Positions 1 to 3,000 of a stretch of DNA of 32,000 nt are shown piece after piece. Both the position numbers and the translations under genes were made by a program. How positions within the stretch are numbered: position 1 is the first letter of the stretch; each line of letters opens with the position of its first letter. The stretch covers positions 13,506-45,505 of the forward strand of contig JBAYPN010000003.1 in assembly GCA_041677685.1 (NCBI GenBank), written 5' to 3'. The notes below the pieces were generated by a model. That model had not been told where the DNA came from. It did no database searches and saw nothing but the letters and a program-made list of their open reading frames with translations. Source of the DNA: an archaeon (GTDB lineage Archaea > Iainarchaeota > Iainarchaeia > Iainarchaeales > CSSED10-239).

Positions 1-3000
1 AGAAACTGTACCATCTGCAGAGTTTGTTACACAAACTTCTCTAGATTTTATTTTTTCAAAAATATTATTAATTGATTTAATTTGAGATGCCTTGCCACTA
101 CTTCCAAAACTACTTGGGTCTAAAGAAACATCAATTCCATTTTGCTTTTGAACATTTATAGAATAATCTTTATTGTATGGTGTGTAAATTATTGATCTTA
201 AATAAACTTTGCCTTGGTAATTTACAATTGGCCATTCTAATTTATATCCGTTTTTAATTGGATCTCCTGCTAAGGTAATATGATCGAAGGTATTATTAAA
301 TGAAGAATATATGTCTTCTCCTGAAAGATCACAACCTTGTCCAACACCAGTCCATCTTGTAAATGTTTCTTCTCCATAAACAGCAGTATTATTAGAGTTA
401 TCCATTATCTTATAGTAGACTTCAAAAGGAGTAATCTTTGAGTTTTTTACAGACATTAAAACTGGAGTTGCAACACTTGGACTAAATATTAAATTAACAA
501 TATCTTCTGTAGATGTTATTTTTAAAATATTTCCTCTTGTTCCTACTTCTGAATTTATTTTAAAAATATTATCTACTGCTTCTATGTTTAAATATTTAAA
601 TGGATTTGAGCCTTTATCATAATAACTTCTTACTTGATCAACTTGTGAGGCATCTCCAATAATTATATCATCATTACCTGAATAAGCCAAACCATATCCT
701 TGTCTATTATATCCTGTGTCTGCATAACCTACAAGTCCATTAAATGGTAGTCTATAGAAAGCACTACTTGTTTCTGGTCCTTTAACATATGAGAAAGTAA
801 CAAAAGAATTTAGGTCTACTTTGTTATTGTTAACCATCTTCCAACCATCATTACCAAATATAAAGTCTATATCTATATCATAAAGTCCAGGTGTAAGAAT
901 GGTTACTTCTTCTTGATTTCCTGAATATTTTAAACTATAATTTAGATTATTTATAAACAATTTAGATAAGTACCCATCATCTGTCTGACCATTAAACATT
1001 CCTGGAGATGACATTAGAGCAAACTCTCCAACACCAGCACCACTATCAATAGATGCTTTTCCACCATAGGTTCTGTCGAAATCATTTTTGAAATTTATAT
1101 TATAATTATCAGTTATTAGCTTTGCTTTAAATTTAAGTAAATTTCTTAAAGTTGAAATGTCTTCTTGACTCCAACCATTACCCCCATTAACAGTCACATT
1201 TTCAGGATATTGGTTAGCATTAAACCACATGTCTATAAAGTCAATTCCATTATAAATTAAGGTCATTGCTGGAACTTTACAACCACTTGTTTCTGGAGCT
1301 TTATAATTTTCTAAAGTTATTTCTGTGGAGAAACTATTATACTCTGAATAGTTTCCTGTGTAGTTTAATGAAAGAGAAATGTTTTCATCTAATATCTTTT
1401 GAGTATTGGAACCAAATCTAAAGATTATGTCTGAAAAGTTATCTTCTCCAGATGGTGTTATTATATCATAACTATTTGCAATTGATTGCTCATCAAACTC
1501 TCCTGTTGAGTGATTATAAATTTCTACTTTTGTTGCAGGGTAATTTTCAAAAGTAGCAGTAACTGTTCCTGTTCTACTATCATTTGTTCTATTCTCTACA
1601 GACATATGCACAATAAACTGATTATCCTCAGTTCCAAATTTAACATCTGAGATTCCAACTTTTCCAAGAGGTATTTCATTTGTTACTCCATCTTCTTCTG
1701 CAACATATTGGTAAGTTCCTTCTAATGCTTCATCAGCAACTTGTTTATTGCTCTTTGGGCATTGAACATTTCTTTGCTCAATAAATTTTTTTGCTTTATC
1801 AATTCTATTTAAAATTACTTGAGTTAGTTGTGTTGCATCACAATAATTATCTTCACAATCATAAATATTATCTAAATCCCACTTCCAATCTAAGTTAACT
1901 TCAGGAACCGCACCTGGTCCAGTAAATCCAAGTTTATCTGAGTCTGTCATACAAGAATATACATTCAGATCAACATTTGGTTTTTCTTCAGTTTTTGGTA
2001 AATGGAATTCCACTCTATATTTTCCAATTCTTTGTGAGTCTTTAAAAGCTAAGTCTTGTTGACTTAAAGAATCATTTAAGGTTGGGTAGAAGTCGTATGT
2101 TTTATATTGACTTAATCTTGAACTATTCTTTATAACGTCATAAGCTGAATTATCAATAACAAAAGTAATTGGTTTGATTCCTGCTTGTTCAGGCCAAACA
2201 GTTTCATCTGAATTACATATTGAATAAATATTAAACTCTGCATTTACTTTCTTTCTAGGAATTGAACCATCACAATCTATTTTGAAATTTGTATAATCTT
2301 CATTTGATCCTGCTTCATCAACTCTTAAATTTGAACAAATACTAGTATTAATTATATCTAAAATATATTCTTGTTCTTCAACAACCGAATTTTGATAATT
2401 ACATTTTGGCACAACTACATTTAAAGTTTTATCTTCTGCTAACTTTCCTTTAATATTTACATATTTATTTAAATAAGTAGTATATCTTGCACCAGTAACA
2501 TCAAAAATATTTAGATATTCTTCCTCTAATTCATAATTATTTAAATTAATAACTTTTAATTGTTCAAAATCACTAAAGGTATATTCATCTGAGACATCTA
2601 AAATTCTATTTGATTCCTGAATATCATAATCAGATATAAAAATTGGAGTAACTAACATTGCAATTGCTGCAGTACCGGCAAGTATCCAACCAAATGGTGG
2701 CACTATACTACCTGTTACAATTATTGTTTTTAAACCAATTAATAATGCTACTGTAATAGTTGCTGCTGCTCCAGCCCCAATTGATGTTCCTAAATAACTT
2801 CCAAATCCAGGTCCATTAGCGTTAACCAAATTCTCTTTTTCATTAAATAACATCTTTGCAAAGATAGAAGAATCACTATCAAAGCCATCACTCATAAACT
2901 TAGAAAAACCATCTCCAGCTTTTTGAGTAGAATAATCCCAAGGTGTCTTTTTTAAATTATTATTATATAGTTTCTTTGTGGAAGTAACATAAGAATTATT

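Follow-up and report, generated by a model that had tools for sequence, protein, structure and literature searches.

The stretch of DNA analysed here (the window) comprises 32,000 nucleotides of contig JBAYPN010000003.1 (GenBank assembly GCA_041677685.1, positions 13,506 to 45,505 of the forward strand) from a tiny archaeon of the Iainarchaeota, a DPANN lineage. One of its genes, A, encodes a giant surface protein in which two large modules, the N-module and the C-module, are joined by a Gly/Ala-rich double hydrophobic segment. The protein belongs to an uncharacterised family of archaeal giant proteins, and the evidence supports the interpretation of this segment as a transmembrane helical hairpin anchor. 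We consider it probable, though far from assured, that the marginally hydrophobic, Gly/Ala-rich helical hairpin anchors the protein in the archaeon's own membrane. Comparison with relatives showed the junction element to be more general than a view of this single window indicates.

The window has a G+C content of 30%, all of its large genes lie on the minus strand, and every large protein begins with an N-terminal hydrophobic anchor or a signal peptide. The gene call on the contig gave protein A a full length of 2465 aa, the final 26 aa lying beyond the window start.

A hydrophobic element between two modules

Window positions 2635-2796 (minus strand) encode aa 1508-1561 of protein A, YLGTSIGAGAAATITVALLIGLKTIIVTGSIVPPFGWILAGTAAIAMLVTPIFI. 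Gly and Ala account for 30% of this segment as against 10.5% of the protein, and charged residues for 1.9% as against 22.6%; the 67 residues from aa 1496 to 1562 hold a single charge, K1530. The mean Kyte-Doolittle (KD) hydropathy over the 54 aa is 1.64, compared with a shuffle maximum of 0.93 +/- 0.18 (2000 shuffles, z = 3.9) and, with the exception of the N-terminal anchor, no other 54-aa stretch in A is so hydrophobic. At the ends of arm 2 are a Trp (start) and Phe/Tyr with an acidic exit, SDYD (end). Chance low complexity or a DNA repeat was rejected as the origin of the segment on the basis of the shuffle and charge statistics, the absence of a tandem repeat and the conservation described below. 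No Rfam match was found at the element on either strand, and the overlapping open reading frames (ORFs), of only 32-33 aa, are spurious.

The closest homologue, P0001, which was also the only one recovered by a word-index search, is 43% identical to A and conserves the hairpin in position and character. A strain variant (P0002), also of 2465 aa, differs from A at 15 of 2439 positions, none of them within the hairpin. Among 19 close orthologues, a hydrophobic element was present at the same place in 17. Its (V/G)P..GW turn is conserved, as is arm 2, which is 18-20 aa long and has (S/T)(F/W)xN(D/E)(Y/F) at its end; the length of arm 1 varied from 0 to about 60 aa. The motif that precedes the hairpin is invariant in P0001 and conserved throughout the A-clade; it is a structured exit point of the N-module. 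The positions given in an earlier note, made from the letters of the window, were exact, and its module sizes hold for the full-length protein, in which the element is preceded by about 1500 aa and followed by about 900 aa; the statistics, P0001 and the close orthologues, most of which carry a hydrophobic junction element, all agree with its description.

Membrane competence and predicted structure

Apparent free energies of insertion (dG, kcal/mol) were scanned with our own approximate Hessa-type re-implementation, checked on internal controls only; the values for arms 1 and 2 were about -0.34 and -0.12, respectively. For comparison, the eight N-terminal anchors and signal peptides in the window scored -2.2 to -5.7, and the best segment elsewhere in the eight window proteins scored at least +2.5 (+2.5 to +5.4). 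The two arms, of 23-27 aa each and with a Pro-rich turn between them, therefore lie at the insertion threshold. In an Eisenberg analysis they had mean hydrophobicities of 0.66-0.80 and helical moments of 0.12-0.18, which places them in the transmembrane zone and not among amphipathic helices.

An AlphaFold2 model was built for aa 1251-2439 of A from an alignment of 55 sequences (mean predicted local distance difference test score, pLDDT, 84.5), AlphaFold being not a topology method. Confident beta domains flank the element on both sides, and most 10-residue blocks of the C-module part have a pLDDT above 85. The element itself (aa ~1496-1556) has a pLDDT below 50, contains no strands and is not packed into the flanking domains; arm 2 is helical (model residues 296-310, equal to aa 1546-1560), and beta strands follow directly after the element (model E313-323 onward). 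A buried beta core, which the earlier note had named as the alternative to membrane helices, was rejected on these grounds: the low pLDDT, the lack of any assigned strand and the helix in arm 2. The model of the 1009-aa product of gene B, a paralogue discussed below, is similar, with a pLDDT below 50 at aa 22-81 and a helix at aa 77-96 just ahead of its C-module.

Predicted topology

A tail of about 29 aa with a net positive charge precedes the N-terminal signal anchor of A, so the anchor is expected to be oriented with its N-terminus inside and the N-module outside. Pfam matches in A were limited to Ig-like/CarboxypepD_reg domains, all in the N-module. The C-module, the most conserved part of A and rich in beta structure, gave a blastp match to the gene B product; since the latter carries a cleavable Sec signal peptide, the homologous C-module of A would also be outside. 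In the family, the flanks on the C-side of the element are acidic (21.5 Asp + Glu against 5.3 Lys + Arg per 100 aa), as expected for flanks that stay outside. From the orientation of the anchor, the Ig-like N-module, the homology to protein B and the acidic flanks, we infer that both flanks of the hairpin are extracellular. The C-module had no match in PDB sequences, Pfam or NCBIfam, and Foldseek searches against the PDB and viral structures (BFVD) returned generic weak matches only, with TM-scores below 0.1; judging from the confident, beta-rich model with its several domains, it may represent a new fold or domain arrangement, together with its counterpart in gene B (window 7407-9500).

In the mechanism that we favour, the hairpin would be inserted in the cytoplasmic membrane of the archaeon itself as the giant protein is threaded through the Sec translocon. 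The chain would run from a short N-terminal tail inside, through the signal anchor (aa 30-51), to an Ig-like N-module of about 1450 aa outside, then in and out again through the hairpin (aa ~1508-1564), either spanning or re-entrant, and on to a C-module of about 900 aa outside. The base of the C-module would thus be pinned to the membrane by a second anchor, one that is neutral with respect to topology. With an even number of passes, such a hairpin could strengthen, weaken, vanish or be cut out by gene fission without the modules being flipped, and a topology-neutral element of this kind fits both the continuum of junctions in the family and the splitting of a sister paralogue exactly at the junction (see below). 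We infer the actual insertion, its depth and the purpose of anchoring; the last is likely to be the positioning, at the membrane, of the C-module of a cell-cell interaction protein, possibly in complex with the neighbouring paralogue. Cleavage by a signal-peptidase-type enzyme after arm 2 was rejected, as a small-x-small motif is absent in A and its relatives.

Marginally hydrophobic helices are commonly inserted with the help of neighbouring helices (PMC8657811; bioRxiv 10.1101/014175). The marginal hairpins inserted by Sec resemble the element of A in having two segments of ~20-27 aa with a dG of about 0, a short Pro/Gly turn and, as predicted for A, flanks on the same side, and cooperative insertion is expected for them. 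A differs in that its hairpin stands alone in the middle of an otherwise extracellular protein of 2465 aa, has no charged cytoplasmic loop, and varies among homologues from no hydrophobic strength to very strong.

The junction in the wider family

An exhaustive profile search put the family at 575 clusters at 50% identity. In a scan of one genome per species, relatives were found almost only in metagenome-assembled genomes labelled Iainarchaeum, Diapherotrites or archaeon; complete genomes with relatives include those of Candidatus (Ca.) Forterrea multitransposorum and AR10. The majority of members measure 2300-2600 aa, carry an N-terminal anchor and end with the C-module; those of a second group, about 1000 aa long, resemble the product of gene B in being C-modules on their own that have a signal peptide. 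An N-terminal anchor is present in 91 of 92 full-length relatives, and none of the 92 has a hydrophobic segment in its last 120 aa. All members whose database names were looked up are listed as 'hypothetical protein'.

The junction was surveyed in the 191 family members in which it is covered, at a threshold of dG <1. At least one segment below this threshold was found in 100 members and two in 25, while 91 had none. Some junctions reach a dG as low as -3.5 and a KD as high as 3.5, and integration by the Sec translocon is expected for such strongly hydrophobic ones; the hairpins of the A-clade have a median approximate dG of -0.04. The hydrophobic cores in the family have a median length of 46 aa (range 19-123 aa), consist of 20% Ala and 18% Gly, and contain almost no Lys or Arg. 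A cysteine pair, CxW...(E/D)DPC, brackets the core, with both members present in 43 of 95 cores (odds ratio 9.8, uncorrected for phylogeny), and CPxC occurs at the turn in 17 of the 95 (CPPC, CPVC or CPAC). These features are seen in many distant members (e.g. L069, L028, L023, P0031 and P0113), and A has neither. In these relatives the cysteines may staple the hairpin by disulfide bonds, both at its base and at its tip. Stand-alone proteins that start with the hairpin (P0011 and P0014) were considered as evidence of its use as an N-terminal signal and rejected, since P0011 is a fragment at a contig end.

Several of these results, together with properties of A itself, weigh against an anchor in the archaeon's own membrane: i) about half of the family lacks a membrane-competent element and two close orthologues (P0005 and L010) are essentially without one, so anchoring cannot be essential to the family; ii) 75 of the 191 junctions have one sub-threshold segment only, which as a single pass would put the C-module inside; iii) each arm of A by itself lies only at the insertion threshold, and the dG figures come from an approximate re-implementation, validated on internal controls only; iv) the turn is nearly free of positive charge, A having one Lys and the family cores 0.33 Lys + Arg per 100 aa, which leaves the hairpin without support from the positive-inside rule; v) arm 1 has no confident structure in the AlphaFold model (pLDDT <50); vi) the bracketing cysteine pair and the CPxC at the turn in many relatives would suit an oxidised, extracellular hairpin; and vii) anchoring an Ig-like string of 1450 aa at both ends would be an unusual geometry, and one that differs from that of the sister paralogue.

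The first of these points also bears on the possibility that the element is a non-membrane linker, i.e. a flexible Gly/Ala-rich segment buried in an oligomer or in an interface between the N- and C-modules or with a paralogue, whose hydrophobicity drifts by lineage. Consistent with such a linker are the weak version that is not membrane-competent in half of the family, the very variable core length, the polar residues (N, H, S and T) kept in the elements of the B type, which suggest specific packing, and the AlphaFold monomer models, which leave the element unplaced, as expected if a partner is needed. However, the stretch in A, at the insertion threshold, runs for at least 60 residues with one charge, and no other soluble segment of the eight window proteins comes within 2.5 kcal/mol of it; arm 2 has aromatic residues at both ends, as transmembrane helices do; and the strongly hydrophobic counterparts elsewhere could not escape the membrane during Sec export. 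We regard the linker as rather unlikely, though a reasonable alternative to the hairpin anchor.

Paralogues and gene order

Three other genes of the window, B, E and F, are paralogues of A or of one of its modules (Table 1). The earlier note had pointed to weaker Gly/Ala/Leu-rich stretches at the same junction in all three. Such stretches were found at the places it gave, and those of B and E are conserved; the one in F is not, and its dG of +4.2 is like the background (best background segments +2.5 to +5.4). The B element contains a strongly conserved GLNP(I/V)xHGxLxGxFS at the homologous junction (dG +4.1, helical moment 0.49), and the E stretch has a dG of +3.7 and a helical moment of 0.45. 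The B and E stretches are conserved amphipathic elements and are not membrane-competent.

Table 1. Features of the window discussed in the text (KD19, 19-residue Kyte-Doolittle value; dG in kcal/mol)
Feature	Position	Strand	Amino acids	Remarks
Gene A	1-7317	minus	2439 in window	giant surface protein
A N-terminal signal anchor	7165-7230	minus	30-51	IFPLFSFVILILIILVILYFVI; KD19 3.42; approximate dG -5.05
A pre-hairpin motif	2839-2949	minus	1457-1493	KTPWDY...GFSKFMS...KMLFNE; pLDDT ~78-86
Predicted hairpin, arm 1	2716-2796	minus	1508-1534	YLGTSIGAGAAATITVALLIGLKTIIV; Gly/Ala-rich, marginally hydrophobic; KD19 maximum 2.14
Predicted hairpin, turn	2695-2715	minus	1535-1541	TGSIVPP; leads to conserved (V/G)P..GW motif
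Predicted hairpin, arm 2	2626-2694	minus	1542-1564	FGWILAGTAAIAMLVTPIFISDY; KD19 1.95
A C-module	1-2625	minus	1565-2439	YCDATQ motif at 1828-1845
Gene B	7407-10436	minus	1009	stand-alone C-module; Sec signal peptide at 10353-10436
B junction element	10167-10295	minus	48-90	conserved, amphipathic
Gene C	10522-14511	minus	1329	N-terminal anchor; no family match; local G+C ~21%
Gene D	14514-15353	-	279	Cys-containing
Gene E	15392-20263	minus	1623	N-module-only paralogue with N-terminal anchor
E stretch	15743-15847	minus	1473-1507	conserved amphipathic helix, hydrophilic tail after it
Gene F	20386-27414	minus	2342	third paralogue; same N-module, different and shorter C-part
F stretch	21853-21927	minus	1830-1854	unconserved in F orthologues

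In genomes close to this one, the genes occur in the order E-like, B-like, A-like, with the E and B halves adjacent, while in the window two further genes, C and D, are inserted between them (10522-15353); neither gave a BLAST match in 71 related loci. In more distant genomes, the upstream gene encodes a single fused protein with an amphipathic junction of the NPW type. Since these genomes carry the fused form, the split is taken to be derived, and E and B together appear to be the products of a fission, at the junction, of a sister paralogue with a weak junction. The upstream paralogue has the weaker junction and the downstream one the hydrophobic junction in 21 of 24 tandem pairs across the phylum; in the related loci L012-L072 (e.g. 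L025, L028 and L052), the weak-junction paralogue comes first, followed by the hydrophobic one and sometimes by a third, intermediate one. This fixed order suggests a functional pair or complex. When C-module sequences were clustered, junctions with a dG <1 were found in 83% and 67% of the members of two clusters and in 15% of a third, and on these comparisons the hydrophobic hairpin is a trait that is conserved and specific to the paralogue.

The fission of the sister paralogue raises the question of whether the hairpin of A could be a scar of gene fusion, arm 1 being the former C-terminal anchor of the N-module and arm 2 the former signal peptide of the C-module, with no specific role. The sister is indeed split here, E followed by B, and the signal peptide of B shows that the modules can be made separately. 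The polarity, however, is the opposite, as the fused form in distant genomes makes the split the derived state; B retains its junction element besides the new signal peptide, E has no C-terminal transmembrane segment, and the conservation of the turn motif and arm 2, together with the paralogue-specificity of the trait across the phylum, argues for selection. A scar of this kind is very improbable.

The three kinds of C-terminal module have in common a 55-aa Cys-containing motif, C..G..G.TG...P.V.FDW.W.....C...YCD(A/Q).Q, located at aa 1787-1841 of A (window 1795-1959), aa ~345-400 of B and aa ~1878-1940 of F, which includes invariant residues of the family (hhalign probability 91%). The C-part of F was considered as a copy of the same C-module and rejected, since this motif alone is common to it and to A and B.

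Comparison with known membrane-active elements

PGF-CTERM and related archaeosortase/exosortase signals consist of a motif, a transmembrane helix and a basic cluster at the extreme C-terminus of a protein. The element of A differs from these sorting signals in being internal and in being followed by an acidic SDYD and about 900 aa, and NCBIfam models found no such signal.

Gly/Ala-rich, short paired helices like those predicted for A also characterise the glycine-zipper families of Pfam (PF13441 Gly-zipper_YMGG, PF13488 Gly-zipper_Omp and PF05433 Glycine zipper 2TM domain). The A hairpin gave no match to this clan (PF13441, PF13488, PF05433 and PF13436) up to E = 10. Several relatives gave sub-threshold matches, the best at 25.2 bits (E = 1.3e-5) where the cut-off is 28.9, and no member tested reached the gathering score. 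Moreover, these families are small bacterial lipoproteins or outer-membrane-associated proteins and not junctions of archaeal giants.

Class I viral fusion peptides, such as those of paramyxovirus F and HIV gp41, are uncharged and rich in Ala, Gly, Val, Ile, Leu and Thr. The earlier note had compared the element with such peptides, exposed at a new N-terminus after processing near the junction, possibly by the neighbouring M6 protease, and the likeness in composition stands. Its architectural counterparts are all absent: the element of A is much longer (55-65 aa) and has two arms; the residues before arm 1 vary among the 19 orthologues and include no basic or other conserved cleavage motif; beta strands and not heptad repeats follow the element; and the anchor is N-terminal, with none at the C-terminus in 92 relatives. 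Foldseek searches against BFVD and the PDB showed no likeness to fusogens, the matches being of generic beta-rich, tail-fibre, integrin or adhesin-like type with TM-scores below 0.1. The stretches in the paralogues, which had been drawn into the same comparison, are not membrane-competent, and we find no support for the fusion-peptide and processing interpretation.

In the colicin channel domain and the diphtheria toxin T domain, a hydrophobic hairpin is shielded in an amphipathic helical bundle. In the prePAAR effectors of the type VI secretion system, N-terminal transmembrane domains are shielded by Eag chaperones (PMC7773334). The toxin hairpins and prePAAR segments resemble the element of A in being uncharged and Ala/Gly-rich; they enter the membrane from outside with both flanks on the near side, and it is through them that these large secreted proteins act on the target-cell membrane. 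A differs from the toxins in having beta domains as flanks, no helical bundle and a Sec-type signal anchor, and from the prePAAR effectors in being archaeal and in carrying its element in mid-chain. Searches with the Pfam Colicin and Diphtheria_T models gave no match for A and one match at noise level in a relative (Diphtheria_T, E = 0.8); the sole prePAAR_I match (E = 9.7) was also in a relative, and no Eag-like gene was recognised in the window by Pfam and NCBIfam scans.

The gene family is also present in the genome of Ca. Forterrea multitransposorum, in an island of the same kind: in locus L009 (CP045477.1), E-like, B-like and A-like genes follow in the same order, and the A-like protein is 39% identical to A across the junction, with a hydrophobic hairpin at the same place. 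In the passages of the published account that were searched, a 42-kb region of this genome encodes five large membrane-anchored proteins with a proposed role in cell-cell interaction (Probst & Banfield 2018, PMC5905446); these passages contain no description of the hairpin in mid-chain, of the division into two modules or of the pattern among paralogues.

These comparisons bear on an alternative in which the hairpin acts in trans: the Ig-like N-module would be a stalk and the Gly/Ala-rich hairpin a prong, analogous to the toxin hairpins and prePAAR transmembrane domains, inserted into the membrane of a partner or host, which it would tether, perforate or fuse. We consider this improbable, and equally so the version in which the prong would be pre-formed at the far end of the stalk beside the C-module, stapled by cysteines in relatives and accompanied by an amphipathic, surface-binding neighbouring paralogue. 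The A-clade hairpins are only marginal, so that passage through Sec without integration is conceivable; the turn has no positive charges; the flanking cysteine pair and the CPxC at the tip in many relatives suit a pre-formed, oxidised hairpin; the corresponding stretch of the sister paralogue is amphipathic and surface-seeking; the composition is like that of fusion peptides and glycine zippers, with the sub-threshold zipper matches in some relatives; and the clade includes Ca. Forterrea, predicted to be host-dependent, for whose large anchored proteins the passages cited above propose cell-cell interaction (PMC5905446). On the other hand, the syntenic counterparts in other Iainarchaeota are very hydrophobic (dG -2 to -3.5) and should be integrated in cis by Sec, the orthologues have no conserved cleavage site, the AlphaFold2 model shows neither a coiled coil after the element nor an amphipathic helical bundle that would shield the hairpin, Foldseek found no fold likeness to viral fusogens or pore-forming toxins, and no chaperone-like partner was identified. 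The earlier note had itself raised a hairpin anchor with both large parts outside, and it is this anchor in the archaeon's own membrane that the threshold-level arms, the Pro-rich turn, the N-in signal anchor and the signal peptide of B support as the probable reading.

The giant genes take up several per cent of very small genomes, and their products are the main candidates for contact of Iainarchaeota with other cells. The predicted topology (N-terminal anchor, outside module, membrane hairpin and conserved outside module) would be a first structural frame for the family, showing where constructs should be cut, which paralogue is membrane-pinned and which part is to be tested for binding. 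The series from amphipathic through marginal to strongly hydrophobic junctions, together with the fission at one homologous site, would be a case of hairpin gain and loss. Insertion into a partner membrane, if it occurred, would bear on how DPANN archaea connect to their hosts, and a prong of this kind would represent a novel class of archaeal surface protein, non-viral and able to attack membranes.

Other observations

The cytoplasmic N-terminal tails of E (20150-20263) and F (27290-27414) and, more weakly, that of A (7231-7317) have a common motif, (L/F)Y..LEDRY(Y/F)NF(V/L)(E/D)K....YKI(T/I)D, which suggests a conserved cytoplasmic contact of the surface giants. Protein F also contains a nearly uncharged, low-complexity region of about 120 aa rich in Asn, Tyr and Gly (aa ~1320-1440, window ~23095-23457; GGQGMYNNYYGGNINRY...NNAYGYENYNF), with a prion-like composition.

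A surface-layer (S-layer) protein has been proposed for Iainarchaeota (UniProt A0A2G9N319, 1039 aa; bioRxiv 10.1101/2024.05.28.596244, Table S1). Compared by length only, it is similar to the B-like stand-alone C-modules. A 1039-aa ORF in locus L050 was considered as a match to this published protein and rejected, as it turned out to be part of a giant gene with a frameshift.

Two smaller proteins are encoded upstream of gene F. The first, of 585 aa (27594-29351), has a start resembling a class III signal of the type IV pilin/archaellin type (...NQKGFNLFTALVSLMLISITLVLIF, ~29247-29351), with a very weak match to NCBIfam pilin_ComGF (E = 0.027). In the second, of 787 aa (29476-31839), an N-terminal anchor is combined with a catalytic domain of the Peptidase_M6 (immune inhibitor A) type (E = 1.7e-10) in which an HEFAH motif occurs.

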